The notes: generated by a model not told the origin, from the sequence alone. Shown: positions 8,683-34,941, numbered from the stretch's first letter. The stretch is 64,000 bases of DNA from Bryobacterales bacterium (GCA_026713545.1 JAPOOG010000032.1:8379-72378), one strand, 5' to 3'. Program-made: numbers and translations.

Positions 8683-8684
8683 GA

Positions 8685-11543: not shown

Positions 11544-11783
11544 GTGATCCCGAAAAGCAGGGTCAGTCGTCCGATAGCCCGTTGGAGTGCCGAACCGCAG
11601 CAGGCGGACGGCCAAGCACCCTGCAATGGTTGCTTCCCTATGGTAGCGCGAGACATCGGCCGGAAGCTCTCGATGCGGTCGGTGTGGCCCCGACTTTCAC
11701 GTACTCGGCAACCGGGCGCTGGACCGATGGGCGCTGATCGACGCTTGTCAAGCTGTCGTTACAGCATCCTTTGAATGACGCCC

Positions 11784-16517: not shown

Positions 16518-16611
16518 ATTGAGACTCCTATTCTTCAAGGGAAGATCCAGATAATATTTCCAATGCCAGCACGCATACCGGCTATGGGTTGTACGCTTTG
16601 CGGGGAACATT

Positions 16612-17874
16612 TCAGGTCGCTTTGGCGTGGCTCAACAGCGCTTCCTTGATGCCCCGTGCCGCGAAGATTTCATCGCCGTCGCGCATGCACTGTGTGGTGA
16701 GGCCGGCGCTCGGCCCGTCGCCGCCTCCGCTGATCAGGACGCGCGGCTGCCCTTCGCGGAGCTGCCGGTAGATCTCCCGCCCCGCTACGGGGATAAGGTT
16801 CTGGTCCCAGGAAAAATGCACGTTGTTGTACCCCTGCGTGTTGTCGACCAGCTCCGCCGTACAGCCGGGAACCTCGTTCAGAACATCGGCAATGTACTGC
16901 GCCTTCTTGTTCCAGCCCTCCAGGACCGCGTCATGGTCGAGAGACGCATACCGCCGAACGGCGGCGACGATACCCATGATCTCCTCTTTTCCGACCTTCA
17001 TGCCGCGGCCGATGGACTTGTACGGAGAGTGGTTGAGAGTGGCGGCTTCGATGAGATCCTTGCGGCCGGCCAGGATCCCGGAGGACTGCGGTCCGCGCAG
17101 GCCCTTGCCTCCGCTGATGACCACCAGGTCGGCGCCCGCTTCGGTATAGCGCGTCATGATGTCGGGCGGCGGCAATTCCGATGCGGCGTCGACCAGGACC
17201 GGCACCCCGTGCTGCTTGCCGATCTCGATGAACTCTTCGGGCATCAATGTCCCCGGCGGATTGTTTTTTTGTCGATAGACCCTGGCCAGGACGGCGATCA
17301 TGGCGGTCTTGTCGCTGATCTTGTCGATCATGCCCTGCTTGGTGTCGGCGTCGACGATCTTCATGCCGGCCGCGCGATAGGCCCGGTCGTAGTTGAAGCG
17401 ATGCTGGGTCTGCGTGAGACACTCGACTTTGTCCCAGGTCGGATGCGGCAGGGCTTCGATCTTTTCCTGGTCCGTGCCCGTCAGGCAAGCCGCCGCCCCG
17501 AGCAGCATCGCCGAGAACGAACCGGCGCTCACTACCGCGGCTTCAGCGCCCATGACCCCGGCGATGTAGTCCCCGGCTGCTTTGTTGAGGGCGTTCATGT
17601 CGATGAAGTAGTCGTTGGCTTCCTCCATCGCGCGCATGACTTCGTCCGGCATGCGGGACCCGCCGATGACGGTGTTGTGGCCCTGGCAGCTCAGAAACGG
17701 ACGCAGGCCGAGCCAGCGGTTGTAGATGCTGTCCTGACCCCAGGACATGGGTTCCTTGAGCCGGGAAGCGGCCGTGCCGCAGGCGGCGGCCAGACCGCTC
17801 AGCGCGGCGACCAGCCCGCGGCGGGTGATTTGCAAAGGCGAGAGACTGCTCAATTCCTTGGTGTGAGTGTCCAT
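16612..17874 (-). CDS. SelA-like (L-seryl-tRNA(Sec) selenium transferase / DgaE-like fold) PLP-dependent enzyme with Tat-lipoprotein-type signal
   Basis: 'ITRRGLVAALSGLAAACGT' (RR motif plus lipobox-like AAC). 'VISGGKGLRGPQSSGIL' resembles the SelA PLP-lysine motif. AGGAGG RBS. Confidence 0.75.
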   Translation of the reverse strand: MDTHTKELSSLSPLQITRRGLVAALSGLAAACGTAASRLKEPMSWGQDSIYNRWLGLRPFLSCQGHNTVIGGSRMPDEVMRAMEEANDYFIDMNALNKAAGDYIAGVMGAEAAVVSAGSFSAMLLGAAACLTGTDQEKIEALPHPTWDKVECLTQTQHRFNYDRAYRAAGMKIVDADTKQGMIDKISDKTAMIAVLARVYRQKNNPPGTLMPEEFIEIGKQHGVPVLVDAASELPPPDIMTRYTEAGADLVVISGGKGLRGPQSSGILAGRKDLIEAATLNHSPYKSIGRGMKVGKEEIMGIVAAVRRYASLDHDAVLEGWNKKAQYIADVLNEVPGCTAELVDNTQGYNNVHFSWDQNLIPVAGREIYRQLREGQPRVLISGGGDGPSAGLTTQCMRDGDEIFAARGIKEALLSHAKAT

Positions 17875-17973: not shown

Positions 17974-19242
17974 TTACGTTGTCCGGCCCTCGGCAATAAA
18001 GAACTCCCGCAACCGGCGCGCGGCGAAGATTTCTTCTCCGTCCCACTGGCACCGCGTGGTCATTCTGCCGCCCTCGTCATCGTTGTAATAGACGATGCGC
18101 GGCTCGCCGGCCTTGAGCTTTTCAGCGGCCTCTTTTCCCGTCAGTGGGATGACCTCGCGGTCCCAGCTCAGGCTGATGTCCTCGAAGCCGTGCGCGTTCA
18201 TGATCTTTTCCGCGTTTAGGCCGGGTACGTCGGCCAACTGATCGATGATGTAGCGCGATTTCTTGTTCCATCCCTCGATCACCGCTTCGTGGTCGAGCGA
18301 AACGTACCGATTCAGTGCCACGACAAAGCCGACGATCTCTTCCTTGCCCACCTTCATGCCGCGTCCGAGAGCGGTGTTCGGGGAGTGGTTGAGAGCGGCG
18401 GCTTCGATGAGGTCCTGGCGGCCCGCCAGGATCCCCGTGGATTGGGGGCCGCGAATCCCCTTGCCGCCGCTGATGACAACCAGGTCGAAGCCCGCCGTGG
18501 TGTAACGGGTCAGCGTATCGACGGGGGGAAGCTCCGACGCCGCGTCGACCACGACCGGCACGCCGGCCTTCTTGCCGAGCTCGAGGAAGTCGTTGGGCAT
18601 CATGACGCCGGGTTTCGGGTTGGGATTGTTATCCCGGCTCGCCAGGCAGGCGAGAAAAGCCGTCTTGCCGCTGATGGCGTTCGCGACCTGCTCTTTGGTC
18701 TCGAAGTCCACCAGCGTGGCCCCGCCGGCCCGGTAGGCGTGGTCGTATCCGAAGCGGTGGGACGTTTGCGTCAGGCACTCGACCCGGTCCCACGTCGGGT
18801 GAGGCAGGGCCTTGACCTTCTCCGGGTCGGTTCCCGAGAGGCATGCCGCCGAAGCCAGCACCATCGCCGAATACGAACCGGCCGTCACCAGCCCCGCCTC
18901 CGCGCCGGTGACCTCGGCGATGCGCCGGCCGGCGGCATCGTTCAACTCGTACATGTCGACGAAGTAGTCGTTCGCCTCGGCGATGGCCCGGATCACTTCG
19001 GGAGGCATGCGCGAGCCGCCGACGATCGTGGTGTGCCCGCGGCAGGTCAGGAACGGGCGGATGCCCAGCAGACGCGTGTAGATGCTGTCGTGTCCCCAGG
19101 CCTTCGAACCTTCCTGCAGCTTCGAGGCGGCCGTGCCGCAGGCCGACGCAAGGCCGGTGAGTGCGGCGATCAGTCCGCGGCGCGTCATTTCCAGAGCCCC
19201 AACTCGGGGCGCATCCGGGTCGGAAATGGTCTTGTTCTTCAC
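17974..19242 (-). CDS. SelA-like PLP-dependent enzyme, tandem paralog (Tat-lipoprotein-type signal)
   Basis: 'MTRRGLIAALTGLASACGT' and 'VISGGKGIRGPQSTGIL'. Start uncertain: GTG at 19242 follows GGAGGAG, with alternatives at 19296 and 19188. Confidence 0.75.
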   Translation of the reverse strand: MKNKTISDPDAPRVGALEMTRRGLIAALTGLASACGTAASKLQEGSKAWGHDSIYTRLLGIRPFLTCRGHTTIVGGSRMPPEVIRAIAEANDYFVDMYELNDAAGRRIAEVTGAEAGLVTAGSYSAMVLASAACLSGTDPEKVKALPHPTWDRVECLTQTSHRFGYDHAYRAGGATLVDFETKEQVANAISGKTAFLACLASRDNNPNPKPGVMMPNDFLELGKKAGVPVVVDAASELPPVDTLTRYTTAGFDLVVISGGKGIRGPQSTGILAGRQDLIEAAALNHSPNTALGRGMKVGKEEIVGFVVALNRYVSLDHEAVIEGWNKKSRYIIDQLADVPGLNAEKIMNAHGFEDISLSWDREVIPLTGKEAAEKLKAGEPRIVYYNDDEGGRMTTRCQWDGEEIFAARRLREFFIAEGRTT

Positions 19243-19357: not shown

Positions 19358-22300
19358 CTAGAAGTTCCAGCGCAGGCCCATCTGCATCTCGCGGCTTTCC
19401 AGCGCGCTCGTGATCCTCCCGAAGTTACCTGACAGGATGTACATCTGCGGGGTCAGGAAGGGCGGCGTGTTCGTCGCGTTGTACATCTCCCACCGCACCT
19501 GGATCGAGTGACGTTCCGAAATGTCGATGTTCTTGAAGATCGAGAAGTCGAAGCCCGTGCGTCCCGGCTCTTCGAGGATGCTGCGCCCCGTGTCGCCGTA
19601 GAGGCCCTTGCCCAGCAGGATCCGGCTCTCGGGAGTGGCGAGCATGAAGGCGCTCGTGTCGAACCAGCGGTCCAGAGTGCGCGCGCCGCCCGAAAGGTTG
19701 CCGTCACCGATTCGGAAGGGGCGCCGGGTGCAGTTCGGGCACCCGTCTCCGGGCGTCGGGTCGACTCTCGACTGGTGCGGGTGAACGGGCAGCCCCGTGG
19801 CCAGCAGGAGAGTGCCATTGACCTGCCATCCGTCGAGGATGTGCTTGGCGGGGCCGGTCAGGTTCTTGGCGAAGGGCAGCTCCCACAGGAACGCGGTCGT
19901 CGCGCGGTGGGTGATGTCGAAATCGCCCCGGCCGCGCTCGGCCGTTCGGCGGTCGTGCGGGTTGTTCGGCCGCTGCGCCCCGCAGCAGGCGCGGAAATCG
20001 AACATCGCCTTCGCCCAGGTGTAGGTCTGCAGGAAGGTGAGTCCGCCGCTGAAGCGCCTCTCCAGCTTGGTCAGCAGGCCATGGTAGCTGCCCGAGGCCG
20101 AGCTGTCGTGAACCTCGATGCTCCCGAACCCGGCCCAGCGCCGAGTCGGGTTGGCGGTGCCGATCGTGTTCGGCAGATACGCGTTGTACTCCGCCGGGAG
20201 GTCGAAGTGGTCCGACTTCGAACCGCTGTAGCCGATTTCGGCAACGAGGTCCCACGGCAGGGACTTCTGGATGTTGATGTTCCACTGATGGACGACACCC
20301 ACCGTTTCTTCGACTTGCGCAGCTCGGATGCGGGCGAGAAAGTTCTCGCTGCTGGCCCGGTCGGCGGTCCCCATCGTGATGATCGGTCTGCGCGGCAGGG
20401 CGGCCTCCTGGATGTTCGCCGTCCCCGGCGGGTTGGCCGCCAGGTGCGGGACGAAGTTGTTGATCATGTTGACGTTGTAGAAGATCCCGTAGCCGGTGCG
20501 GATCACGAAGTCCGTCCCGCCGGTGGGCCTCCAGGCGATCCCGAAACGCGGCGCCCAGTTGTTCTTGCTCACCACGTTCAGGGGAACCCGCGCCGCGCCC
20601 GGCGCCGGGAACAACTGGCCCGAAGCCATGTCGAAGTTCCGCGACTCGCCGCGGTCATCCACGAACGGGGAGTTGTACTCCCAGCGGAGGCCGAGGTTCA
20701 GGGTCAGGTTCGGCGTGACCTTCCACTCGTCCTGGATGTAGGGGTGCAGGCGCCAGTACTCGAAGTCCGGGTACGTGCCGGCGTTGGGCTTGCCCGGAAT
20801 GTTGCCCAGCGTTACCCGTTGCGGATGGTCGAGCAGGAAGTCCGACCAGCCGTGGCCCGAGTGGATGCCGTTGAAGCTGAAGCTGCCGTTGGCGAACTGG
20901 ATCGTGCGCCGGGAGGTTCGGACGAGATTGTATTCCAGGCCGGCCTTGATGCTGTGGTCTCCCTTGATGAACGAGACGCTCTGGAAAATGGAGCGCGACT
21001 CGTCCCAGATCTGGTTGACGTCGGAGGCGCCGATGCCGCAGCAACCGGTCACGCTGATGCTGACGATGCGTGCGTCGTGCGGGTCCTCGGTCTGGCCCGG
21101 GATGCCCAACTCCGTCAGGTTGTTCCATCCGCTGTCGGTGAAACCCGTCCGGCGGAAGTAGAGGTCGCGGTTGTACGAAGCCCGGATTTCGTAGAGCGAC
21201 GTGTTGGAGAGGAAGTGGGTCCATGTCATCGTGGCGTTCTGCTGCTTCTTCGGGTTGAAGAACGTGAAGCGCGGGTCGACGGAAGCCAGGACATTGATGC
21301 TGGCCGGTTGAATCCTCTGGATGCCGTAGCGGCCGAAGATCTTGTTCTTGTCGTTGACGTTCCAGTCGCTCCTCAGGTAGAACTGGTCGTCGTCCAGGTC
21401 GTTCTTCGTGGTGCCCGAGAAGTTGTTCCTGCCGTCGAACTGCGGGTTGCCGAAGTTCGGCTGCGGCCAGAAGGGAATCACCCTTTTCGAGACGGACGAG
21501 ATTCGGCTTGATGGAATGACGTGGTTCGGGAAGGCCCCGCAAGTCGCTGCATCCGCCGGATCCGTGCAGGTGGCGATATCCAGGACCGGACTGCTGGCGA
21601 AGAAAGGCTCGCTCAGATCGCCGTTGCGCATGAGCTGCGTCGGATACGTGCCGAAGCCCTGATTGCTGCGCCGTTCGCTGAGGCTCTCCAGGTTGGCCGT
21701 GAAGAACAGCCGGTTCGTGATGATCGGGCCGCTGATCACGCCGCCGTAGGTGTTGCGCGTCAGTGGCCGCTTCGGAAGATTGGGATTCTCGAAGAAGTTG
21801 CGGGCGTCGAGCTCCTCGGCGCGGAAGAAGTGGAACAGCGTGCCGTGGAATTCGTTCGTGCCGGGCCGGATCGAGGTGATGATCTGCGCGCCCGACTGGG
21901 TCCCGTACTCGGCGTTGTACCAGCCCGCTTCGACGCGGAACTCCTGAATCGCCTCGACCGAGGGCCGCATCCGGACCATGCCGTGGATGCCGGTGCGGAG
22001 CGGAGCGCCGTCGAGAATGATGTTGTTGTTGTGCATCTTCTGGCCTAGCGCCGCGATGCCGTAGCCCGGCCCGAAGCCCGACGTCGTCACGCTGCTGCGC
22101 GGCCCGCGGCTCATGCCGGGTGCGAGCAGCGCCAGCCGGAACAGATTGCGGTCGCCCGGAATCGGCAGCTCGCGAATCTTGGATTCGTCGATGACCGTGC
22201 TGATCGTCGTGTCGTCCGTCTGGACCGACACCGCGTCGGCCTGCACCGTGATCTGCTCGGTGACGGCGCCGATCTGCAGCGTCAGGTTCTGGCGGCGGAC

Positions 22301-22660
22301 CAGGTCGACCTCGAGCCGCACGTCGGTCGCGACGGCGCGGCTGAAGCCTTCCATCGTGGCCGCCACTTCGTAGAGGCCGATGTCCAGCGCAGTGACCGCA
22401 TAGTCGCCGCGCTCGTTGGTCTCGACCGTCCGCTCCTCCTGCGTGCCTACGTTCGTGACGGCAACGCTGGCGCCGGGAATCGCGGCGCCGGATTCGTCGG
22501 TTACCGTTCCAATGATGCTGGAACTGGTGCTTTGCGCAAATGCGGTGCCCGCGCCAAGGGACATCGCCAGAGCCAAGGTAATAACGACAAAGGCGTCATT
22601 CAGCCTCCCCGCTTTCGAAAAAGCCGGGGTATGCCAACAAGAACTTCTCTTCTCGTACAT
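19358..22660 (-). CDS. TonB-dependent outer-membrane receptor with N-terminal carboxypeptidase-regulatory-like domain (1100 aa)
   Basis: 'GTVTDESGAAIPGASVAVTNVGTQEERTVETNERGDYAV' (CarbopepD_reg-like). Long beta-barrel-type sequence ending in '...MQMGLRWNF' (aromatic C-terminus). Confidence 0.9.
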   Translation of the reverse strand: MYEKRSSCWHTPAFSKAGRLNDAFVVITLALAMSLGAGTAFAQSTSSSIIGTVTDESGAAIPGASVAVTNVGTQEERTVETNERGDYAVTALDIGLYEVAATMEGFSRAVATDVRLEVDLVRRQNLTLQIGAVTEQITVQADAVSVQTDDTTISTVIDESKIRELPIPGDRNLFRLALLAPGMSRGPRSSVTTSGFGPGYGIAALGQKMHNNNIILDGAPLRTGIHGMVRMRPSVEAIQEFRVEAGWYNAEYGTQSGAQIITSIRPGTNEFHGTLFHFFRAEELDARNFFENPNLPKRPLTRNTYGGVISGPIITNRLFFTANLESLSERRSNQGFGTYPTQLMRNGDLSEPFFASSPVLDIATCTDPADAATCGAFPNHVIPSSRISSVSKRVIPFWPQPNFGNPQFDGRNNFSGTTKNDLDDDQFYLRSDWNVNDKNKIFGRYGIQRIQPASINVLASVDPRFTFFNPKKQQNATMTWTHFLSNTSLYEIRASYNRDLYFRRTGFTDSGWNNLTELGIPGQTEDPHDARIVSISVTGCCGIGASDVNQIWDESRSIFQSVSFIKGDHSIKAGLEYNLVRTSRRTIQFANGSFSFNGIHSGHGWSDFLLDHPQRVTLGNIPGKPNAGTYPDFEYWRLHPYIQDEWKVTPNLTLNLGLRWEYNSPFVDDRGESRNFDMASGQLFPAPGAARVPLNVVSKNNWAPRFGIAWRPTGGTDFVIRTGYGIFYNVNMINNFVPHLAANPPGTANIQEAALPRRPIITMGTADRASSENFLARIRAAQVEETVGVVHQWNINIQKSLPWDLVAEIGYSGSKSDHFDLPAEYNAYLPNTIGTANPTRRWAGFGSIEVHDSSASGSYHGLLTKLERRFSGGLTFLQTYTWAKAMFDFRACCGAQRPNNPHDRRTAERGRGDFDITHRATTAFLWELPFAKNLTGPAKHILDGWQVNGTLLLATGLPVHPHQSRVDPTPGDGCPNCTRRPFRIGDGNLSGGARTLDRWFDTSAFMLATPESRILLGKGLYGDTGRSILEEPGRTGFDFSIFKNIDISERHSIQVRWEMYNATNTPPFLTPQMYILSGNFGRITSALESREMQMGLRWNF

Positions 22661-24257: not shown

Positions 24258-25571
24258 ATGCAAGTGAATCGCAGGGAATGGCTGTCGGGCGGTTTGGGCG
24301 CGGTTTCAACGGCGGCGTGGGCAGGCTGCGGCGCCGGTTCGCAGACGCAGGGCGGCGCGCTGGCGCCCGTGGTCTCGGGGGGCGTTGTCGATTGGGAGGC
24401 GGTTCGCGCCCGTTTCCCGCGCGCGGTCAACGAGACCTACTTCAATTGCGCCGCGCAGCATCCCCTGGGAGTCCATACCGTCCGGGGCTTCGAGCGCTAC
24501 ATCGACTTCATGCACAATGGCCCTGGCGAGGGCCGCGAGGACTTTTGGGAAACCGGCTATCGCGAGATGAAGCCGGCGTTCGCGCGCCTGATCAATGCCA
24601 AGCCGGAAGAGATTGCCTTCTGTGCGGGAACCACGGTCGGCGAGAACCTCATCGTCAACGGCATGGACCTGAGCAACGCCAACGTGGTCACCAACGATCT
24701 GCACTACACGGCGTCGCTGGCGAACTATCTCGCGCGGCGCGACAAACATGGGTTGGACGTTCGCATCGTCAAGCACCGCGATTGGGAAATCGACATCGCC
24801 GACATGGAGAAGGCGGTGGACCGCAATACCCGGCTGATCTCGGTTTCGTTCGTGTCGTCGGTGAACGGCCACCTCGAGGACCTGAAGAAACTCGGCGACC
24901 TGGCTCATGCTCACGGCGCTTGGCTGTTCGCCGACATCATTCAGGGCTGTGGCGCGACGCCGCTCGACGTGCGCGCAATGGGTGTCGATTTTGCCTCGTG
25001 CGGGATGTACAAGTGGCTCCAGGGCGAACACGGCTTCGGGTTCCTGTACGTCAAGGAAGACCTGCAGGGCACGGCCGTCAAGGGGACACAGTTCACAGGC
25101 AGTCCTGGCCTCAACTACGAGCCCTGGACCGCCTCGCCCGACCCCGCCAAGCCCGAGTTCATCTCGCGTCCTCGGGAGGGCATCGGGCAGTTCGAGTGCA
25201 GCACGCCGGCGGCGATCAACTACGCCGGTCAGCTCGAATCGTTCCGCTTCATCGAAGAGATCGGCGTCGACAAGATTCGGGCGCACGCTCGCGAGGTGAC
25301 CGCCCGGCTGCAGAAGGAACTGCCTCCGCTCGGCTTCACCGCCATCACGCCCGACGGCACCGAATCCGGCATCCGAACCTTCCTGCACCCCGATACCGAT
25401 TCACTCAAGGCCAAGATCAACCGCGCCAACGAAGAGGGCCGCGCCAATATCTCGATCGGCGGCCCCAACTCGGGACTCACCGTGGGACGCGGCGGCAACC
25501 AGGTGCGATTCTCGGTTTCCGTCTACAACAACCACTCGGATGTCGACAAGGTGCTGGAAGTCTTGTCCTGA
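24258..25571 (+). CDS. Aminotransferase class-V-fold PLP-dependent enzyme, Tat signal + lipobox (paralog 1 of 4)
   Basis: 'MQVNRREWLSGGLGAVSTAAWAGCG'. PLP-lysine-type motif 'CGMYKWLQGEHGFGF'. Collinear similarity to the three following genes. Confidence 0.85.
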   Translation: MQVNRREWLSGGLGAVSTAAWAGCGAGSQTQGGALAPVVSGGVVDWEAVRARFPRAVNETYFNCAAQHPLGVHTVRGFERYIDFMHNGPGEGREDFWETGYREMKPAFARLINAKPEEIAFCAGTTVGENLIVNGMDLSNANVVTNDLHYTASLANYLARRDKHGLDVRIVKHRDWEIDIADMEKAVDRNTRLISVSFVSSVNGHLEDLKKLGDLAHAHGAWLFADIIQGCGATPLDVRAMGVDFASCGMYKWLQGEHGFGFLYVKEDLQGTAVKGTQFTGSPGLNYEPWTASPDPAKPEFISRPREGIGQFECSTPAAINYAGQLESFRFIEEIGVDKIRAHAREVTARLQKELPPLGFTAITPDGTESGIRTFLHPDTDSLKAKINRANEEGRANISIGGPNSGLTVGRGGNQVRFSVSVYNNHSDVDKVLEVLS

Positions 25572-25938
25572 CGGGGCGGGATGAAACCCCGCTCGGCGCC
25601 GAGAACGGCCCGCGCAGCACCGTGAAAGGCGTTGCGCCCGGCTGACAAGCCGCGGCCAGGGAGCCTATGGCGCCTGTTCGACCAAGGAGCAACGCAGTTC
25701 AGCCGGGATGCATCGCCGCTTGAATGCAGCAGAGCTCGTGCCGCGGGCTGTTGGCTTTCAGGTCTTCGCCAGCAGCCGCTTTGCGAAGCCGCCCTCCTGG
25801 GAGTGCTCGAGTGCCCTCTGGGCGCTTGCCCGCATCCCCAGCCCGAACGGCGGCTCCAACAAGAGCCGCCCCGAGCCCGGCAACCCGTTCTCCACGAAAC
25901 ACGAGACACGAGACACTGTTTTTTTGTTGCCTCTTGGT

Positions 25939-25963
25939 ACTGAAGCCCTTCAGTCTTTTTTTC
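25939..25963 (+). terminator. Terminator-like hairpin + T-run carried on a repeat module
   Basis: ACTGAAG-CCC-CTTCAGT followed by CTTTTTTT. The same module occurs inverted at 54541-54566. Confidence 0.45.
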
Positions 25964-26150
25964 CCGCCCCGGTCGGCATAGCATGAGCACAGAGAGGCTA
26001 ACGAACGACCTGCCGTCGGCGCGGCGCTCGCCTCTGGCGGCTGCCCCCCACGACGGCAACACGGCTTTCCCCGCCGTGGATGCGCAAGGGTCGCGCCACC
26101 GGAAACTGCCGTCCGGGCCACTGCGCCAGCCGGCAAGTCACCGTTCTTCA

Positions 26151-26206
26151 GTTCACGATTGTTCACCATTGTTCGCCATTGTTCGCCATTGTTCGCCATT
26201 GTTCAC
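26151..26206. repeat. 10-bp tandem repeat, about 5.6 units (GTTCRCSATT)
   Basis: GTTCACGATT GTTCACCATT GTTCGCCATT GTTCGCCATT GTTCGCCATT GTTCAC, read directly from the sequence. Confidence 0.9.
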
Positions 26207-26445
26207 TAAAAAAATATTGCCCCTGCGCCACTGTCGTTGCCCCGTCCGCCGTTCTCGGTCGGCCTTACGACGAGCCTCGCCACCGGGCAGCTCCCGCTGC
26301 GGCGAACACAAAATGAAGCCATGCCGAGAAAAGGGAACATTCCAGCCTGCATTGACTGGAGTCGTGGACACTTTGCACCGGGAGGCTTAGAGTAGAGGTA
26401 CGCTGGAGGGCCGTCTGTTGCGGCCTTTCCGGGAAAGGGGAGTTC

Positions 26446-27687
26446 ATGCCTATCAATCGACGCCAGTTCCTCGGTGCGGCGGGCGCCGCCGCGGCCGCGG
26501 CCCACGCGGCGTGCGAAAGCCAGGGGGGCGCTTCCCCCACGCTTTCCGATATCGCTTCGATCCGAGAGCGGTACCCGCGCGTGCTGCGGCAGGCGTACCT
26601 CGACACGGCGGCGCACTGCCCGCTGAGCACACATACCCGCGAGGGGATGCAAAAGTACATGGACTTCCACATGTACGGCGGCGGGGAAGGTCGCGGCGAG
26701 TATGCCGGTGAGGCGATGCGTGCCGTCAAGCCGCAGTTCGCGCGCATGATCGGCGCGAAGCCTTCGGAGATCGCCTTCGTCCAGAACACGAAAGCGGGTG
26801 AGGACATTGTGGTGAACGGCCTGGACATCCAGGCCGCGGGCGGCAACGTCGTCACGAACGACCTGCACTACGCCGGCTCGATCCACAGCTTCCTCGGCCG
26901 CAAGAAAGCCGGCATGGATGTTCGGATCATCAAGTCGAAGGATTGGGTCACCGACCTTGACGCCATGGAAGCCGCGATCGACAAGAAGACCAGGCTCGTC
27001 GCGATCACATTGGTCTCGAACGTCAACGGACACGTCGAAGACGCCAAGGCCCTCACCGGGATGGCGCACGCGAACGGCGGGTATGTCTACGCCGACATCA
27101 TTCAGGCAGCGGGCGCCATCCCGATCGACGTCAAGGCGCTCGGTCTCGATTTCGCTGCTTGCTCGAATTACAAGTGGCTCCAGGGTTGCCGCGGCTCAGG
27201 CTTTCTGTACGTCCGCGAAGAACTGCAAGGCACGGCGGTGAAAGACCTGCTCTTCCCCGGCTATGTCCGCTTCAACTACCCGCCGTGGGTGGACCCCGCC
27301 GACGGTAACGAAGATCCGATGCCCTTTTCCCCGCCCAGGAACGCCGGCCGCTATCAGCCGGGCAATACGGCCCGCGAGGGCTACTGCGGCCAGTATGAGT
27401 CGTTCAAGGTGATGGAAGCGATCGGCGTCGAAAACATGCTGGCCCATACGATGGCCCTGGTCGACCGCATCCGCAAGGAGCTTCCGGAGAGCAGGTATCG
27501 GTGCATCACGCCCGAGGGCGCTCGCAGTCCGATCCTCGTTTTCATCCCGGCGGACTACGAGGGAACGCAAGCCAGGCTGAAACAGGCGAACATTCAGGCG
27601 ACCACGACGGGGAACCGTTTGCGAATCTCGCCCAACATCTACAACAACCAGGAAGATGTCGACAAGCTGCTCGACGCCTTGGTCTGA
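26446..27687 (+). CDS. Aminotransferase class-V-fold PLP-dependent enzyme, Tat signal + lipobox (paralog 2 of 4)
   Basis: 'MPINRRQFLGAAGAAAAAAHAACES' and 'CSNYKWLQGCRGSGF'. Confidence 0.85.
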   Translation: MPINRRQFLGAAGAAAAAAHAACESQGGASPTLSDIASIRERYPRVLRQAYLDTAAHCPLSTHTREGMQKYMDFHMYGGGEGRGEYAGEAMRAVKPQFARMIGAKPSEIAFVQNTKAGEDIVVNGLDIQAAGGNVVTNDLHYAGSIHSFLGRKKAGMDVRIIKSKDWVTDLDAMEAAIDKKTRLVAITLVSNVNGHVEDAKALTGMAHANGGYVYADIIQAAGAIPIDVKALGLDFAACSNYKWLQGCRGSGFLYVREELQGTAVKDLLFPGYVRFNYPPWVDPADGNEDPMPFSPPRNAGRYQPGNTAREGYCGQYESFKVMEAIGVENMLAHTMALVDRIRKELPESRYRCITPEGARSPILVFIPADYEGTQARLKQANIQATTTGNRLRISPNIYNNQEDVDKLLDALV

Positions 27688-27775
27688 CCGGAAACATTCT
27701 CTTGATCAAGCGGCATTGACAGCGGTCCGGATGTTTCCTGCTGGTATGATCCGTGTGCGGGCGGAGAAAAAAATA
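27685..27775. repeat. 85-89 bp hairpin element, copy 3 (intergenic, directly upstream of paralog 3)
   Basis: 'TGACCGGAAACATTCTCTTGATCAAGCGGCATTGACAGCGGTCCGGATGTTTCCTGCTGGTATGATCC...GGCGGAGAAAAAA'. It starts at the stop codon of paralog 2 and ends about 12 nt before the AGGAG RBS of paralog 3. Confidence 0.8.
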
Positions 27776-27787
27776 AAAGGAGCGGCC

Positions 27788-29056
27788 ATGAACTTCAATC
27801 GAAGATCGTTTCTTGCGGGAAGCGTCGCGGCGTCCGTGGCGTCGCAGCTCGGGTGCGGTCAGGAAAGTGATGCCGCGCCGGTGCTCGGAGACCTCGACAG
27901 CGCGCGCCGCGACTTCCCGCGGTCCGCGAACGGCGTGTACATGAATCACGCCTCGCAGCACACCCTCAGCGTACAATCGGCTCGGGCAATCCAGCGGTAC
28001 GCCGACTACCTTGCGAACGAATGCTCGCGAGCCGGTTGGTACGAGGTGTCGGACGATGCAAAGGCGCTTGGCGGCGCATACAAGCGCGAAGTCAAGGAGA
28101 TGTTCGCCAGGCTGATCAATGCCCGGCCGTCTGAGATCGCCTTCTGCCTGAGCACGACCGTCGGCGAGAACATGGTCGTGAACGGCATGGGCATTCAGGA
28201 GTCCGGCGGCAATGTCGTAACGAACGATTTGCACTATTCGAGCTGCCTGTACAACTACAAGATGCGCCAGCAGCGTGGTCTTGACGTGCGCATCGTCAAG
28301 CACAGAGACTGGCGGCTCGACCCGGCCGACTTCGAAACCCTCATCGACGACAAGACGAAGCTTGTCGCGCTGACGCTGGTTTCGAACGTCAACGGATTGC
28401 TCGCCCCGGTGAAGGAGATCGCCGGCATCGCGCATCGCAACGGCGCTTATGTCTACGCGGACATCATCCAGGCCTGCGGAGCCGTGCCCATCGACGTACA
28501 AGCCATGGGGATCGACTTTGCCGCCTGCTCGACCTACAAGTGGCTGATGGGACTGCGCGGTTTCGCCTACCTCTACATCAAGGAGGACCTGCAGGGAACC
28601 GTCGTGCAGCCCACGCAGTTCGGAGGAGGCGTGAGCTTCAACTACGAGCCCTGGGTCGAAAATCCCGACTCCGGCAGTGGCGAGATCGTCTACCGGCCGA
28701 AGCAGATGGCTTCCCAGTACGAAGTGGGCAACGTATCGAGTGTCGGATGCGTTTGCCAACAGGAGGCTCTGAACTTCATCCACCGGGTCGGCGTGGATGA
28801 GATTCAGGCGCACGCGACTCCCCTGACCGAGTTCCTGCAAGAGGAGATGCCGAAGATCGGGTATGCTTCGATCACTCCGAGTGGCAATCGAAGCCCGATC
28901 ACGACGTTTCGCGTCCCTGATCCGAAAGAGGCCGAGCGGCGGCTCAAGGAAGCCCATATCGAGGTGACGCTGCGGTTCGGTAATCAGATGCGCGTATCGG
29001 TGTCGGTGATGAACAACCAGCAGGATGTCGAGGCTTTGGTGGCGGCGCTGGCGTAA
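27788..29056 (+). CDS. Aminotransferase class-V-fold PLP-dependent enzyme, Tat signal + lipobox (paralog 3 of 4)
   Basis: 'MNFNRRSFLAGSVAASVASQLGCGQ' and 'CSTYKWLMGLRGFAY'. AAGGAG RBS. Confidence 0.85.
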   Translation: MNFNRRSFLAGSVAASVASQLGCGQESDAAPVLGDLDSARRDFPRSANGVYMNHASQHTLSVQSARAIQRYADYLANECSRAGWYEVSDDAKALGGAYKREVKEMFARLINARPSEIAFCLSTTVGENMVVNGMGIQESGGNVVTNDLHYSSCLYNYKMRQQRGLDVRIVKHRDWRLDPADFETLIDDKTKLVALTLVSNVNGLLAPVKEIAGIAHRNGAYVYADIIQACGAVPIDVQAMGIDFAACSTYKWLMGLRGFAYLYIKEDLQGTVVQPTQFGGGVSFNYEPWVENPDSGSGEIVYRPKQMASQYEVGNVSSVGCVCQQEALNFIHRVGVDEIQAHATPLTEFLQEEMPKIGYASITPSGNRSPITTFRVPDPKEAERRLKEAHIEVTLRFGNQMRVSVSVMNNQQDVEALVAALA

Positions 29057-29092
29057 ATGAAATGCGGCCGACTCGATCGATGGAGAAACCCT

Positions 29093-30352
29093 ATGAACTT
29101 TGATCGACGCGATTTCCTGGCCGGTTCCGCCACGCTCGGCTCCGGCATGTTCTTTGGTTGCAGTGCGGCGGATTCCAAGATCGCCGACACTGCGCTCACG
29201 GCCGAAAATGCCGACTTCGCAACCGCCCGAGCTGCTTTCCCCTGGTCAACGAAGCAGGTCTGGCTGAACAACGCCGGCCGGCATCCCTGTGGTGTTCACT
29301 CCGTCAACGCGGCCCGCGGGTATCTCGACTACATCCTTGATGGTCCGGGAAACGGCGCCGGCTTCGGAGAAAAGCAGTTCCACGATGTGAAGGCGTTGTA
29401 CGGCGAGCTCATCAACGCCAAGGCGTCGGAAATCGCGCTCGTGCAAAGCACGCTGATCGGCGAGAACCTCGTCGCTCTCGGTCTGGGCCTGCACGACGGC
29501 AAGGGCAACGTCGTCACCGACGAGCTGCACTATCACGGCGGAAGCTATATCTATCGCCGCCTGCAGGACGCCGGGCTCGAATTGCGGATCATCAAGCAGA
29601 AAGACTGGCAAGTCACTCCTGAGGAGTACGAGCGGGTGATCGACAACGACACGAAGCTCGTCTCGCTAACCCTGGTTTCGAACATCAACGGGTTTCTCTA
29701 CGACTCCAAGGCCATCAGCGAGATCGCGCATGCCAACGGCGCCTACGTTTATGCCGACGTCGTCCAGGCGGCCGGCTGCGTTCCCGTGGACATGCGGGCC
29801 ATGGGGATCGACTTCTGCTCGGCTTCGACCTACAAGTGGCTGATGGGGATGCGCGGCCTGGGGTTGTTCTACGTGCGGGAAGAGCTTCAGGGCGGCGTGC
29901 TCAAGCCGGTGATGTACGGGGACAAGCAATACTCGAACTTCGAGTTCCACTACTTTCCGGGGAGCCCGCCGGGCGAGACGCCGATCAGCTATCAACCGCG
30001 CGGCGGGGCGCAAATATATGAGGTCGGCAACGTCTCGAACATCGCCGGGGCGGCGCAGCGCGAGGCGCTCAAGTACATCCTCAAGCTCGGTGTCGACAAC
30101 ATCCTCGCCCATGCCAAGCCCATGTGCGACAAGCTGATCGAGGAGTTGCCGAAACTTGGTTACCCTTGCATCACGCCGCCGGGCAGCCCCACGCCCATCA
30201 CGGCTTTTCTCGTCGAGAACCCCGAAGAAACCAGCGCCAGATTGAGAGCCGCCAAAGTCGCTGCCAAGGTCAAGTGGAAACAGATGCGTGTCTCGCCCTC
30301 CGTCTTCAACACGATGGCCGACGTGGACCAATTGCTGGATGCGTTATCCTGA
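29093..30352 (+). CDS. Aminotransferase class-V-fold PLP-dependent enzyme, Tat signal + lipobox (paralog 4 of 4)
   Basis: 'MNFDRRDFLAGSATLGSGMFFGCSA' and 'ASTYKWLMGMRGLGL'. Confidence 0.85.
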   Translation: MNFDRRDFLAGSATLGSGMFFGCSAADSKIADTALTAENADFATARAAFPWSTKQVWLNNAGRHPCGVHSVNAARGYLDYILDGPGNGAGFGEKQFHDVKALYGELINAKASEIALVQSTLIGENLVALGLGLHDGKGNVVTDELHYHGGSYIYRRLQDAGLELRIIKQKDWQVTPEEYERVIDNDTKLVSLTLVSNINGFLYDSKAISEIAHANGAYVYADVVQAAGCVPVDMRAMGIDFCSASTYKWLMGMRGLGLFYVREELQGGVLKPVMYGDKQYSNFEFHYFPGSPPGETPISYQPRGGAQIYEVGNVSNIAGAAQREALKYILKLGVDNILAHAKPMCDKLIEELPKLGYPCITPPGSPTPITAFLVENPEETSARLRAAKVAAKVKWKQMRVSPSVFNTMADVDQLLDALS

Positions 30353-30365
30353 CCGGTCGTATGAG

Positions 30366-30683
30366 CCTGTATTTCTCATCACGTGGCGAGACGAAGTGCG
30401 TGAGAGGGCCGTCAGGACGAGGCGCGAGCCGCTTGGCGCGCGCAGGCGTAGCGGCCATATTGCCTCCTTTGGCCTTCGGGTCACGAAACATGAGACACGG
30501 CCTTTACGGTTCACCGCCCGTCAGACATTTCTTTCGAGAACGAACCAGGCCCCCCGCCAGGGTTTTTCAAGAATCACGGCCTTGTACGCAAGCCGCCTTG
30601 GAGCGACAGCCGTACCGCCCGCCTGGGTTTTGGGGTCACGAATCACGCGACACGAGACACGAAACACGGCCTTTTAATGCAGG
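30366..30683. repeat. Long-form composite element B (one arm of the 177-bp element + S-core module + heptamer words)
   Basis: Starts CCTGTATTTCTCATCACGTGGCGAG...GCCGCTTGGCGCGCGCAGG (arm shared with copies A and D). Continues with the S-core 'CCGTCAGACATTTCT' at 30496-30568, then 'CACGAATCACGCGACACGAGACACGAAACACGG', and ends ...TTAATGCAGG. Fills almost the whole 361-bp intergenic gap. Confidence 0.75.
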
Positions 30684-30713: not shown

Positions 30714-33230
30714 ATGAATCGCTATCGCCGCAGTGTTGTCGCCCTTCTTTGCCTGACCGTTTGCATCACCTCCGGGTCGGCGCAGTTCCCGGCCAGGAAC
30801 CGCTATGCCGGAGGGTACATGTACAACTTCTACATGCCGCCGAGCGCCAGCACGCCCTGGCGGCCGGCGTGGTCGCCCGACGGCAAGGAGATCGCTTTCT
30901 CCATGTCGGGCTCGCTGTGGAAGATCAAGGTCGGCGACACCACTGCCTACGAGCTGACCGCGAACAAGACCTATGACTCCGCTCCGGCGTGGTCGCCCGA
31001 CGGCCGCTGGATCGTTTACACCGCCGAAGACGGCCAGGGCATCAACTTGATGCTCTACAACGTCGCCACCGGCGAAAGCACCGCCGTCACCCAGGGTGGC
31101 AAACTGCACGCCGACCCCGTCTGGTCGCCGGACGGCAAGACACTGGCCTATGTTCACAACGACCCCCGGAGCCGCTTCCACATCTACACGCGCTCGTTCG
31201 ACAACGGCTCCTTCGGCGAACAGGTCCGTATCACCGAGCCCAATGATTTCGGACGCGGGCGCCTCTACTTCGGGCGCTACGACGACCACATTCAGCCCAC
31301 GTTCTCGCCCGACGGCAAGGAGATCATCCTCGTTTCGAACCGCGGCATCACGTTGGGCTCCGGAGCGATTTGGCGTGCGCCGCTCGAACCGGACGCCATG
31401 TCGAAAGCCACTCGCATCCTGCGCGAAGAGACGCTGTACCGCACCAGGCCGAACTGGTCGCACGACGGCAAGCGCATCCTCTACGCCTCGCATCGCGGCA
31501 GCCAGTACACCAACCTCTACGTCCATCCCGTGCACGAAGGCGAGCCGCTGCAACTCACGCGCAATCCCTGGGACCACTTTGACCCGGCCTGGTCTCCCGA
31601 CGGCGAATGGATCGCCTACATCTCGAACGAGCACGGTCTCTCCGAGCTCCGCTTGCTCAAGACCTTCGGCGGGACCGACGAGAAAGTCGAGATCAAGCGC
31701 CGCGTCTGGCTCCGCCCGATGGGCCGCATCGAAGTGTTCGTAAAAGACGACACGACCGGCGAACTCACCGAATCGCGAATCTACATGAAGGCCTCCGACG
31801 GCAAGATCTACGCGCCCACGAACACCTACCAGCGGGTCGCCGCCCGCGCCGCCAAAGAGGACTTCTTCCACGCCCCCGGGCACTTTATCGTCGAGGTGCC
31901 GATCGGCGAGCTCATTCTCGAAGCCGCCAAGGGGCCTGAGTACTGGCCGTCCCAAGGCAACTTCTACGTCCACCCGAAAGGCGTCACGCGCATCGAGCTC
32001 GAACTCACGCGGATGGCCAGCATGAACGCCATGGGCTGGTGGAGCGGCTCGGACCATGTCCATATGAACTACGGCGGCAACCTCAACAACACGCCCGAGT
32101 ACATGTTGTTCGAGGCCAAGGCGGAAGACCTGGACCACATTGGCTGGAAGATCGCCAACAAGGACAATCGTGTCTTCGACACGCAGTACTACAAGGGCGA
32201 GCCCCTGCACTCGCTCTCCGACGATCAGAACCTGATCTCGTTCGGTGAGGAATACCGCCCCGCCTGGTACGGTCACATCAACTTCATCAATCTCACCAGG
32301 CACCTCATTTCGCCTTTCACGACCGCTTACCAGGACACCGGCATCGCCAGCCTCTATCCGAGCAACACCGACATGTTCGCCCTGGCTCGCAAACAGGGAG
32401 CCATCGGCGGGCACGTCCACCCGTTTTCACGCGAACCTTCGATGGACTCGGAATACCGCGTTGCCCAGACGTACGCCGTCGATGTGGCCCTCGGATCGTT
32501 CGAGTACCTCGAAGTGCTGACCAGCGCCAGGCACTACACGGCGACGTCGAAGGCCTGGCACCGCTCGCTGAACTGCGGCTTCAAGGTGACAGCCTCAGCC
32601 GGGGAAGATTCGATCCTGAACCTGCAGGCTACACCGCCGATCGGCGCCGCCCGCATGTATGCCTACCTGGGAGAAAAACTCACCTGGGATGGCTGGGTGG
32701 AAGCGGTCCGGGAGGGCCGGACGTTCGTCACCAATGGCCCGCTGATCCAGTTCACGATCAACGGCGAGATCCCTGGGTCGGAGATTCATTTGCCTGCGGG
32801 CGGCGGCGCGGTGGAGCTGAGAGCGACGCTCGAATCGATCGTTCCGCTCGAAACGTTCGAGATCATCCACAACGGCAAAGTCATCGAGACGATTCCTCTG
32901 GACTACGACAATCAGAAAGCGGTCTTCGAGAAACGGATCGAAGTCGCCGAAAGCGGCTGGTATACGCTCAAGGCCGCCGGTAGCGGCATCAAGCACCCCA
33001 TCGACGATGCCTATCCTGTCGCCGAAACGAGTCCGATCTACGTGCTTGTCGGCGACCAGCCCATCCGCTCGAAAGAAGATGCCGAATACTTCATCCAGTG
33101 GATCAACGACCTGATCACGCTCTGGGACGGCTACGAGTACTGGCGCTCGGACCGCGAGAAGGAGCACGTCCTCGGGCAGTTCCGCGAGGCCCTGGCGGTG
33201 TTCGAAAAGCGCCGGGACGAGGCACGGTAA
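30714..33230 (+). CDS. Secreted PD40/TolB-like beta-propeller fused to PHP/CehA-McbA-like metallohydrolase domain (paralog of 11784-14279)
   Basis: Signal 'VVALLCLTVCITSGSAQ', repeated 'WSPDG' motifs, 'WWSGSDHVHMNYGG', 'GGHVHPF'. Confidence 0.8.
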   Translation: MNRYRRSVVALLCLTVCITSGSAQFPARNRYAGGYMYNFYMPPSASTPWRPAWSPDGKEIAFSMSGSLWKIKVGDTTAYELTANKTYDSAPAWSPDGRWIVYTAEDGQGINLMLYNVATGESTAVTQGGKLHADPVWSPDGKTLAYVHNDPRSRFHIYTRSFDNGSFGEQVRITEPNDFGRGRLYFGRYDDHIQPTFSPDGKEIILVSNRGITLGSGAIWRAPLEPDAMSKATRILREETLYRTRPNWSHDGKRILYASHRGSQYTNLYVHPVHEGEPLQLTRNPWDHFDPAWSPDGEWIAYISNEHGLSELRLLKTFGGTDEKVEIKRRVWLRPMGRIEVFVKDDTTGELTESRIYMKASDGKIYAPTNTYQRVAARAAKEDFFHAPGHFIVEVPIGELILEAAKGPEYWPSQGNFYVHPKGVTRIELELTRMASMNAMGWWSGSDHVHMNYGGNLNNTPEYMLFEAKAEDLDHIGWKIANKDNRVFDTQYYKGEPLHSLSDDQNLISFGEEYRPAWYGHINFINLTRHLISPFTTAYQDTGIASLYPSNTDMFALARKQGAIGGHVHPFSREPSMDSEYRVAQTYAVDVALGSFEYLEVLTSARHYTATSKAWHRSLNCGFKVTASAGEDSILNLQATPPIGAARMYAYLGEKLTWDGWVEAVREGRTFVTNGPLIQFTINGEIPGSEIHLPAGGGAVELRATLESIVPLETFEIIHNGKVIETIPLDYDNQKAVFEKRIEVAESGWYTLKAAGSGIKHPIDDAYPVAETSPIYVLVGDQPIRSKEDAEYFIQWINDLITLWDGYEYWRSDREKEHVLGQFREALAVFEKRRDEAR

Positions 33231-33300
33231 AGCAGAGTGGTCGGGCCTGTCCGCGTCGGTCGTGAAGACGCGGTCGATCGGAGTGACGAAGGAGCAACCA

Positions 33301-34941
33301 ATGACTCGGCGCATGCGACGCAGAACCCTCTTGAAGCTGGCCGGGAGCGCTGCGGCGGCGCAGGCTTTTGCAGCGCAAGGCGAATCTGACGATGTCATCA
33401 TCAGCGAACTCGGCGCCATCGCCGTCGGTCGCGCGCCGACGGCCGCGCGCGCCGGGCATGACATCTTCGCTCGAGGGGGAAATGCCGTAGACGCGGCCGT
33501 CGCCGCAGCCTTGCCCGCGGCCGTCGTCGAGCCCGCCTCGTGCGGCATTGCCGGATACGGCACGCACATCACGATCGGCCGGGCTGACGGCAAGGTCGCT
33601 TGCATCGACGCCAACTCCATGGCGCCTCAGGCGGCGCGGCCTGACATGTTCAAGCACGACGGCACGGGGCAGGTCCCTGGCAAGGTCAACTACTACGGCT
33701 GGCTTGCCGCCGGCATACCCGGCGTCATGGCCGGACTCCAGGCGGCGCTTGACGGCCACGGCAAGAAGAAGCTGGGCGACGTGGCCGCATCGGCGATCCG
33801 TTACGCCCGCGACGGGTTCGCCGTGAACGAACGTGTTGCCCGATCGTTTCAAGGCTCTGCCGGCCACTTCCTCCGCGACGCGGCCTCGAAGAAGCTCTAC
33901 TTCCACGGGGATGAGCCGATCCGCGCAGGACAGAGGTATCGCAACCCGGACCTCGCCTCCATGCTCGAAACGCTGGCTGACCGCGGCACGGCCGATTCCT
34001 TCTACCGAGGCGACATCGGCCGCCAGATATCCGCTGCATTTCAAAAGCACGGCGGCATCGCTACGGCTGACGATTTCGCGGCCTACGAAGCCAGGCAGGT
34101 CGAAACCAACCGACTCTCGTGGCGCGGCTACTCGATGCACACCGCTCCGGTCAGCGCCGGCGGCCTTTCGACCTTGCAGGCGCTGGCCATCGTGAAGGCT
34201 CTGAAGTGGGAAGAGTGGACGGCACGGCACGAAAAGAACCACGCCGCGCTCGAAGCTCTGCGGCTCGTCTGGGCCGACCGGTTCCGGTATTTCGGCGACC
34301 CGGAACACGTCGATGTCCCCGTTGCGCGCCTGCTCTCTGACGATTATGTCCGCGATCTCGCGGACAAAGTCGAAAGCTCCGTGAAAGCGGGCCGCCCCAT
34401 CGAGCAGGACTTCGATTCCTACGAGCAGAGGGGGACCATTCACATCAGCTCGTCCGACCGGGAAGGCAACGTCGTGGCTGTCACCCTCACCCACGGCGGC
34501 GGTTTCGGCGCGCGCGTCACTGTGGAGGGCCTTGGGCTTACGCTCGGACACGGCGTTTCGCGGTTCGACCCCCGCCCGGGCCGTGCGAATTCGATCGCCC
34601 CGCGCAAGCGCCCGCTGAACAATATGACGCCCACCGTCGTTTTGCGCGATGGCCGTCCCATCCTCGCCCTCGGCGGGCGGGGTGGACGCCGCATTCCCAA
34701 CATGCTCTACTCGGCTCTGTTGCACTTCGTCGGCGAAGATCGTTCCATGGTTGAATCCGTCAACGGCCCCCGGATGCACACCCTCGGCAATATGAACCTT
34801 ACTCTCGACAACCCGTGGAAAGCCGAAGACGTCGGTTTTTTCAAAAAGATCGGGTATCGAGTCTCCCGCGGCGGAGTCGCTTTGCTGAGCGCCGCCTCTT
34901 TCGATCCGCGCACGGGGAAAGTTGCTGCCGCATTCCGCTAG
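33301..34941 (+). CDS. ggt: Gamma-glutamyltransferase family protein (Tat signal)
   Basis: 'MTRRMRRRTLLKLAGSAAAAQAFA', 'GGNAVDAAVAA', the autoprocessing-site-like 'RGTIHISSSD', and 'NNMTPTVV'. Confidence 0.85.
   Translation: MTRRMRRRTLLKLAGSAAAAQAFAAQGESDDVIISELGAIAVGRAPTAARAGHDIFARGGNAVDAAVAAALPAAVVEPASCGIAGYGTHITIGRADGKVACIDANSMAPQAARPDMFKHDGTGQVPGKVNYYGWLAAGIPGVMAGLQAALDGHGKKKLGDVAASAIRYARDGFAVNERVARSFQGSAGHFLRDAASKKLYFHGDEPIRAGQRYRNPDLASMLETLADRGTADSFYRGDIGRQISAAFQKHGGIATADDFAAYEARQVETNRLSWRGYSMHTAPVSAGGLSTLQALAIVKALKWEEWTARHEKNHAALEALRLVWADRFRYFGDPEHVDVPVARLLSDDYVRDLADKVESSVKAGRPIEQDFDSYEQRGTIHISSSDREGNVVAVTLTHGGGFGARVTVEGLGLTLGHGVSRFDPRPGRANSIAPRKRPLNNMTPTVVLRDGRPILALGGRGGRRIPNMLYSALLHFVGEDRSMVESVNGPRMHTLGNMNLTLDNPWKAEDVGFFKKIGYRVSRGGVALLSAASFDPRTGKVAAAFR

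Follow-up and report, generated by a model that had tools for sequence, protein, structure and literature searches.

Four SufS-related PLP enzymes with twin-arginine leaders, probably exported, in a conserved receptor and hydrolase neighbourhood of a Bryobacterales genome

The window analysed here, a 64,000-nucleotide stretch of a Bryobacterales (Acidobacteriota) genome (GCA_026713545.1, JAPOOG010000032.1:8379-72378), contains four genes for class-V fold enzymes dependent on pyridoxal phosphate (PLP), which are named g1, g2, g3 and g4 in their order along the window. We consider it probable that these enzymes are exported through twin-arginine translocation (Tat), are tethered to a membrane by lipid, and serve in a conserved envelope module for scavenging organic nitrogen. 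The initial annotation, made from the sequence, described four collinear genes of 437, 413, 422 and 419 amino acids; this is borne out, with all four on the + strand, and the N-terminal strings that it quoted (NRREWLSG..WAGCG, NRRQFLGA..HAACE, NRRSFLAG..QLGCG and DRRDFLAG..FFGCS) match the translations exactly. Three complete metagenome-assembled chromosomes carry genes with 96-97% identity to g1.

The description of the four products as class-V fold PLP enzymes was correct. All match Pfam PF00266 (Aminotran_5) with 124-167 bits against a cut-off of 21.5 (E = 1e-36 to 1e-49), and the cofactor site is intact. For g3, an AlphaFold (AF2) model computed from an alignment of 97 sequences reached a mean predicted local distance difference test (pLDDT) score of 90.9, with residues 1-33 disordered and the fold beginning at about residue 35. 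When this model was compared with the PDB by Foldseek, the top matches were the type II cysteine desulfurases SufS, CsdA and a Thermococcus enzyme (template-modelling (TM) scores of 0.76-0.78 and 22-25% identity for the SufS/CsdA-type matches, with TM 0.77 for SufS), and the same enzymes come out nearest when the PDB is searched by sequence and by profile. The placement within fold-type I that the initial annotation had proposed as a check is thus class V, with SufS and CsdA as the nearest solved folds. Profile alignment of the family to SufS equates H149 with H123 (the stacking histidine), N202 with N175, D225 with D200, Q228 with Q203, the Schiff-base lysine K251 with K226, and the arginines R396 and R402 with R359 and R379. 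The SufS numbers are those of what we take to be the E. coli sequence, and are consistent with the mutant names in the titles of the matched PDB entries. In the 97 sequences, K251 of g3 and D225, the aspartate that pairs with the pyridine nitrogen, are invariant. The lysine motif had been given as (S/N/M)YKWL.G, of which the YKWL-x-G part holds, but the preceding residue is in fact M, N, T and T in g1, g2, g3 and g4.

With SufS and CsdA (TIGR01979), the closest solved folds, g1-g4 thus have in common the His, Asn, Asp, Gln and Lys that bind PLP and the two arginines that hold the substrate. In contrast, SufS and CsdA keep a catalytic-cysteine loop that g1-g4 have lost, and g1-g4 carry an export signal. 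The family profile has a gap of 12 residues where SufS has its catalytic-cysteine segment RAGHHCAQPLM, and inspection of this segment in the four proteins found no cysteine in any of them (4/4). Desulfurase models score below their cut-offs for g1-g4 (TIGR01979, 98-139 bits against 475; NF006791, 66-104 against 661), all NCBIfam models for SufS, IscS and CsdA are far from being reached, and no SufE or SufU partner was seen for the window proteins. Because the catalytic-cysteine loop (RxGHHC) is deleted, g1-g4 are not cysteine desulfurases, and the desulfurase activity admitted as one possibility by the initial annotation is excluded. As read from their sequences, g1-g4 are SufS-derived PLP enzymes that should be incapable of forming a persulfide. 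Homologues are labelled 'selenocysteine lyase/cysteine desulfurase' in the JGI annotation, and the desulfurase half of this label is not supported. An N-terminal cysteine standing in for the lost catalytic cysteine in trans was also considered and rejected, as most family members have no N-terminal cysteine.

The leaders of these proteins depend on correct choice of start codon. The g3 and g4 genes are nested in longer open reading frames (ORFs) beginning at 27656 and 29057. Their internal ATGs give MNFNRR and MNFDRR and have Shine-Dalgarno-like AAGGAG or GGAG motifs 5-8 nt upstream (in g3, AAGGAG 5 nt 5' of the ATG), and database homologues of both genes begin at the same internal ATGs. The longer starts were rejected because homologues give them no support and because the one at 27656 overlaps g2. 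The sequence GGGAGAAG lies 4 nt 5' of the g1 ATG, and a Shine-Dalgarno-like motif precedes the g2 ATG as well. Read from these positions, all four proteins open with M-x-x-(N/D)-R-R-x-(F/W)-L, and the next 17-19 residues are uncharged. A twin-arginine (RR) motif was counted in 89/115 full-length best homologues, with a run of at least 13 uncharged residues behind it in 77, and the leader is therefore inherited rather than a chance occurrence. In orthologues recovered from genomes the leader features are retained, down to about 50% identity, while the leader sequence itself changes, as is usual for signal peptides. The leader also lies outside the predicted fold: it falls in the disordered N-terminus of the g3 model, alignments to SufS start at about residue 35, and leaderless homologues in Latescibacterota and Poribacteria start directly at the conserved 'PDFxAVRxDFPR' of the fold, so that the leader appears to have been added to an enzyme complete in itself. 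PLP is synthesised in the cytoplasm, and a conserved leader outside the fold fits Tat export of a folded holo-enzyme. Such export has been demonstrated for PvdN and for PtaA (PA2531, periplasmic transaminase A) of Pseudomonas, an active-site lysine mutant of PvdN not being exported (PMC6206403), and the Tat signals of PvdN and PA2531 have been validated experimentally (PMC6085387). Export of g1-g4 is accordingly predicted with considerable assurance. It would be very surprising if instead the RR motifs were unused, through wrong starts or non-functional leaders, and the proteins were class-V enzymes of the usual cytoplasmic kind, for example cysteine desulfurases or selenocysteine lyases. The public (JGI) names of homologues, the leaderless homologues in other phyla and in-frame GTG codons 3' of the leader in g1 would be in line with a cytoplasmic location, but the Shine-Dalgarno-like motifs 5' of the RR-containing ATGs, the persistence of leader features to about 50% identity, the deletion of the desulfurase cysteine loop and the low SufS, IscS and CsdA model scores all speak against it.

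A cysteine follows the uncharged run in each protein, at residue 24 in g1 and residue 23 in g2-g4. A PROSITE PS51257-type lipobox rule, [LIVMFWSTAG](2)-[LIVMFYSTAGCQ]-[AGS]-C after the uncharged run, is satisfied by g1 (AAWAGC) and g4 (MFFGC). Every orthologue of at least about 65-70% identity, in all four paralogue lines, keeps the cysteine with G, A or S at -1, while the flanks vary within this close clade (WAGC, LAGC, LTGC, QAAC, QTAC, QSGC, HTAC, QTSC, LASC, QLAC, HLGC, PFGC), and it is this constancy that makes anchoring plausible. Between the cysteine and the fold, a low-complexity, disordered stretch is present in the g1-g4 sequences and in the g3 model, as would be expected of a tether. 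Signal peptides that combine Tat export with cleavage by signal peptidase II (Tat/SPII) are a recognised class (PMC9287161), and lipidation can also take place at atypical lipoboxes (PMC8038367). Like the Tat/SPII lipoproteins of haloarchaea and actinomycetes, a class in SignalP 6.0, g1-g4 have an RR n-region, a short uncharged h-region and [GAS]-Cys (PMC9287161, PMC2945643); unlike them, g2 and g3 have the atypical residues H and Q at -3, and g1-g4 are putative members predicted from sequence. Lipid anchoring of the four proteins is, on this evidence, the somewhat more probable outcome.

Export signals on PLP enzymes suggest that their amino-acid chemistry is probably periplasmic here. In the mechanism that we propose, g1-g4 would fold and take up PLP in the cytoplasm, then leave it by Tat as holo-enzymes, probably to be cleaved at the conserved cysteine and held by a lipid tether at a periplasm-facing membrane, on a disordered linker of about 10-20 residues. 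Descent from SufS/CsdA-type enzymes would have left the whole PLP site and both α-carboxylate arginines in place and removed the persulfide-cysteine loop, and this combination suggests that the enzymes act on a free α-amino-acid moiety and transfer no sulfur. The likeliest chemistry would be of a cosubstrate-free lyase type, namely elimination or removal of a β-substituent with PLP regenerated at every turnover, for which NifS-like enzymes, with desulfinase and selenocysteine lyase as side activities, may serve as a model. NifS-like enzymes without the cysteine still remove β-substituents, for example selenium or sulfinate, and the periplasm has no obvious recycling of pyridoxamine phosphate; these two considerations favour a lyase-type reaction, and transamination, as in PtaA, would rank second.

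Several observations count against the interpretation of g1-g4 as lipid-tethered Tat substrates with lyase-type activity. The Tat signals ascribed to all four proteins are supported by the RR leader, but the curated Tat hidden Markov models divide them: g2 passes both PF10518 (27.0 bits, cut-off 22.7) and TIGR01409 (20.3, cut-off 16.7) and g4 passes TIGR01409 (18.7 bits, cut-off 16.7), whereas g3 is sub-threshold (19.8 against 22.7 bits) and g1 has no match to PF10518 or TIGR01409. Similarly, the lipobox cysteine that the initial annotation assigned to all four stands by the standard rule in g1 and g4, but not in g2 (AHAAC, H at -3) or g3 (SQLGC, Q at -3). Signal-peptidase-I sites of AxA type in g1 (AWA/G) and g2 (AHA/A) would give soluble proteins. 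Across the family, [AGS]-C after the uncharged run occurs in only 13 of the 89 RR-bearing homologues, and in most members, including those of more distant Bryobacteraceae, the leader ends in AxA without a cysteine. The reaction type is drawn only from the missing cysteine loop and the PLP-regeneration argument, and PtaA is an instance of working periplasmic transamination. For g1-g4, no substrate, product transporter or regulator was identified.

The points concerning the leader make soluble rather than lipidated enzymes a real alternative, especially for g1 and g2. Under this explanation the proteins would be exported and cut by signal peptidase I, with the cysteine beside the site left unlipidated. 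The AxA motifs lie directly before the cysteine in g1 and g2, the failure of g2 and g3 under the PROSITE-style rule and the AxA endings of most homologues agree with it, and PvdN and PA2531 are themselves signal-peptidase-I substrates (PMC6085387). Against it stand a cysteine and a small -1 residue that are invariant in close-clade orthologues of all four lines while their flanks vary. Moreover, g3 and g4 have no good AxA site, canonical lipoboxes are present on two neighbouring DgaE-like PLP enzymes (described below), and a disordered linker follows the cysteine. We therefore regard the soluble form as the less likely of the two fates, while giving it appreciable weight, and continue to favour a lipid tether.

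Few PLP enzymes are known to be active outside the cytoplasm, PvdN and PtaA being those in the cited sources (PMC6206403, PMC6085387). Since these two are known, the principle of Tat-exported PLP enzymes is neither new nor without precedent. PvdN, which acts in pyoverdine tailoring (NF051467), resembles g1-g4 in combining the class-V fold of a PLP enzyme with a twin-arginine leader. Its export takes place after folding and with PLP bound, it is active in the periplasm, and its substrate residue has free α-amino and α-carboxyl groups (PMC6206403). It differs in being distant in sequence (g1-g4 score 35-52 bits with its model, against a cut-off of 650), in having an AxA-type leader without a cysteine (PMC6085387), and in being single-copy in a siderophore cluster, in contrast to four paralogues that may be lipid-anchored and are not set among biosynthetic genes. 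PtaA, compared by description, resembles the predicted g1-g4 as a Tat-exported periplasmic PLP enzyme and differs as a transaminase with a signal-peptidase-I-type leader; it is also found outside pyoverdine clusters (PMC6206403). What appears to be new, from the sequences, is a SufS-derived family without the cysteine loop, its probable lipid anchor, and its coupling to a receptor and hydrolases that is conserved in Acidobacteria, together with the concentration of six predicted exported PLP enzymes in about 14 kb. No publication on the g1-g4 family or on the β-propeller/CehA fusion adjoining it was found in literature searches.

This coupling lies just outside the coordinates of the initial annotation, where two more Tat/lipobox PLP genes and a conserved receptor and hydrolase partnership are found (Table 1). 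The leaders of both DgaE-like proteins have a Tat motif and a canonical lipobox that meets the strict rule; among 118 homologues of the DgaE-like family, 116 have the RR motif and 32 the strict lipobox. The receptor, which combines a CarboxypepD_reg domain with a large β-barrel, is divergent from g1 and lies between the DgaE-like pair and g1. A gene for a fused propeller and CehA/McbA metallohydrolase follows g4 directly on its 3' side, and next to it the γ-glutamyltransferase (TIGR00066, 327 bits, just under the cut-off of 358) is syntenic in the closest genomes. Sec-type leaders are seen in the translations of both acetamidase/formamidase-family proteins.

To assess conservation, 79 related loci were collected by tblastn, 65 of them of at least 12 kb, and genes within 6 kb of a class-V gene were counted as neighbours. 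The propeller-CehA hydrolase is a neighbour in 29/65 loci, directly adjoining in many, the receptor in 25/65, and both in 18/65; a DgaE-like gene is near in 12/65, and 26/65 have at least two class-V copies. The combination of a PLP enzyme with a propeller hydrolase and a receptor is found repeatedly in Bryobacterales. The complete g1-g4 array is found, among the related loci compared, in the three closest genomes only, while g1-g2-g3 occur together at about 70% identity in two loci (L010 and L011) and g2-g3, in some cases with g4, in several others. In one related genome about 170 kb separate g1 and the receptor block from g2-g4 and the hydrolase (loci L004 and L050), and related genomes have at least six class-V copies spread over several loci. 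Within the window the spacing is uneven (875 bp between g1 and g2, 100 bp between g2 and g3, 36 bp between g3 and g4), and pairwise identity among the four is 36-48%. Recent tandem amplification was rejected, given this low identity and the separate orthologues of each paralogue. The four-fold tandem expansion claimed earlier is thus an overstatement: since identity is low, each paralogue has its own orthologues elsewhere and g1 can be split off, the array is an old and partly mobile set of paralogues.

Table 1. Genes and landmarks of the window, with positions counted from its first nucleotide.
Feature	Position	Strand	Evidence
g1, class-V PLP enzyme, 437 aa	24258..25571	+	PF00266 E = 4.9e-40
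g1 landmarks	RR codons 24270-24275; Cys24 24327-24329; PLP Lys252 25011-25013	+	
g2, class-V PLP enzyme, 413 aa	26446..27687	+	PF00266 E = 7.9e-38
g2 landmarks	RR 26458-26463; Cys23 26512-26514; Lys243 27172-27174	+	
g3, class-V PLP enzyme, 422 aa	27788..29056	+	PF00266 E = 7.7e-49
g3 landmarks	RR 27800-27805; Cys23 27854-27856; Lys251 28538-28540	+	
g4, class-V PLP enzyme, 419 aa	29093..30352	+	PF00266 E = 7.4e-36
g4 landmarks	RR 29105-29110; Cys23 29159-29161; Lys248 29834-29836	+	
DgaE/SelA-like PLP enzyme	17974..19188	-	TIGR01437 147 bits, under cut-off 385; leader MTRRGLIAALTGLASAC
Second DgaE/SelA-like PLP enzyme	16612..17874	-	TIGR01437 162 bits, under cut-off 385; leader ..ITRRGLVAALSGLAAAC
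TonB-dependent-type outer-membrane receptor	19358..22660	-	PF25183 E = 3.6e-198, PF13620, PF00593
Secreted TolB-like β-propeller fused to CehA/McbA-family metallohydrolase	30714..33230	+	PD40; NF038032 191.8 bits, cut-off 80
Paralogous secreted β-propeller/CehA-McbA metallohydrolase	11784..14279	-	NF038032 148 bits, cut-off 80; PD40 repeats
γ-Glutamyltransferase, RR-rich leader MTRRMRRRTLLKLAGSAAAAQAFA	33262..34941	+	PF01019 E = 3.6e-112
Two acetamidase/formamidase-family genes	14362-15456, 15222-16610	-	PF03069 E = 2e-25 and 4e-22

The composition of the neighbourhood invites comparison with the polysaccharide-utilisation loci of Bacteroidota, in which a TonB-dependent transporter is combined with lipid-anchored or secreted degradative enzymes diversified as paralogues. 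By this analogy, the window locus would be similar in having a receptor flanked by paralogous envelope enzymes, and different in having PLP enzymes, amidases and metallohydrolases instead of glycoside hydrolases; no SusD-like partner was identified in it. The receptor would import an organic nitrogen (or sulfur) compound, the β-propeller/CehA-type hydrolases, amidases and γ-glutamyltransferase would cleave it, and the class-V and DgaE-like PLP enzymes would deaminate or degrade the amino-acid parts released. We tentatively put forward an 'organic-nitrogen utilisation locus' of Bryobacterales with this logic, comprising the four class-V enzymes, the two DgaE-like enzymes, the receptor, the propeller/CehA hydrolases, the amidases and the γ-glutamyltransferase, in which a battery of lipid-anchored, Tat-exported PLP enzymes might degrade amino acids in the periplasm; as a joint reading of all these parts it is a possibility that we hold below even chances.

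The same neighbours could be read in another way, with g1-g4 tailoring a secreted metabolite such as a siderophore in the periplasm, as PvdN and PtaA do for pyoverdine, and the receptor re-importing the product. The characterised Tat-exported PLP enzymes in the cited sources are PvdN and PtaA, PvdN being of class V (PMC6206403, PMC6085387), g1-g4 have weak matches to the PvdN model (E down to 5e-14), and the adjoining TonB-dependent receptor, metallohydrolases and Ntn-type hydrolase (the γ-glutamyltransferase, loosely comparable to PvdQ) would have counterparts in such a system. However, the 35-52 bits obtained with the PvdN model (NF051467), far from its cut-off, are also lower than the scores with SufS models, and the ORFs of the 64-kb window, the largest of which encodes the 1100-aa receptor, include no nonribosomal peptide synthetase (NRPS), polyketide synthase (PKS), pvd or other biosynthetic gene. 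At least six copies over several loci in related genomes also fit catabolic diversification better than a single pathway. Metabolite tailoring is, on these grounds, a doubtful explanation, and scavenging of organic nitrogen the one that we prefer.

Acidobacteria are abundant and poorly understood bacteria of soil and freshwater. If these predictions hold, Acidobacteria would export whole sets of PLP enzymes, coupled to outer-membrane receptors and periplasmic hydrolases, which would provide a periplasmic route for the mineralisation of organic nitrogen and a function for some of the many TonB-dependent receptors of the phylum. PLP enzymes from two large families not characterised as periplasmic would then be so placed, in a compartment where amino-acid breakdown is almost unknown. 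The widespread automatic label 'cysteine desulfurase/selenocysteine lyase' would be corrected for a family without the catalytic cysteine, and the proteins would offer a natural system in which to examine how lipoproteins already loaded with a cofactor are exported by Tat.

The non-coding sequence around the class-V genes has several features of its own. A repeat of 50-100 nt with the core CTGATCAAGCGGCRTTGACA occurs on the + strand at 23618-23719, 23868-23921 and 27671-27772, that is, in two copies 5' of g1 and one in the g2-g3 spacer that overlaps the g2 stop codon; the 3 matches in the window compare with 0.01 expected. Two relatives have it at the corresponding place between g2 and g3, and it occurs at one unrelated locus as well; it may be an element resembling a repetitive extragenic palindrome (REP) or a miniature inverted-repeat transposable element (MITE), or a shared regulatory site. 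The 875-bp g1-g2 spacer (25572-26445) is non-coding and includes, at 26151-26210, a 10-nt unit (GTTCGCCATT-like) present in five copies placed head to tail; its length in the three closest genomes is about 1.0 to 2.7 kb, and because of this variation it is taken as a hot spot of insertion and deletion. Motifs of CACGAGACACGA type lie on the + strand at 25893-25924, 3' of g1, and at 30475-30506 and 30644-30675, 3' of g4. Rfam had no match in the window, and a scan of the window for promoters and terminators gave background level only. In the 1.6-kb divergent spacer between receptor and g1, an 80-aa ORF (23284-23526, -) resembles by eye the C-terminal part of a PIN-domain (VapC-type) toxin, which would suggest a decayed toxin-antitoxin pair.

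Further observations concern the flanking genes. The upstream formamidase-family ORF is about 75 codons longer than its paralogue and shares about 235 nt with the beginning of the gene that follows (15222-15456, -); a similar overlap is seen in a related genome (L004), and it could be a real extension or the result of a lost stop codon. After the γ-glutamyltransferase comes a 489-aa secreted protein (34954-36423, +) with no Pfam or NCBIfam match, a 54%-identical relative of which adjoins a g1 orthologue in another genome (L005). The stretch 7261-11615 (-) holds a pair of genes, one for a DUF1501 protein, identified by Pfam and carrying a Tat-like leader, and one for a protein of 976 aa that is of DUF1549/DUF1553 type by eye only; pairing of these types is typical of Planctomycetes and Acidobacteria. 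Twin-arginine leaders are also found on an enolase-superfamily (MR_MLE) protein (145-1656, +; GRRRFLLGATAAPAFLAL) and on a GlcNAc-2-epimerase-like protein (5857-7230, -; SNRRRFLTAASAGVAGLA), the latter passing TIGR01409. Both enzyme types are normally cytoplasmic, and the export of enzymes of cytoplasmic type may be a general habit of the source organism.

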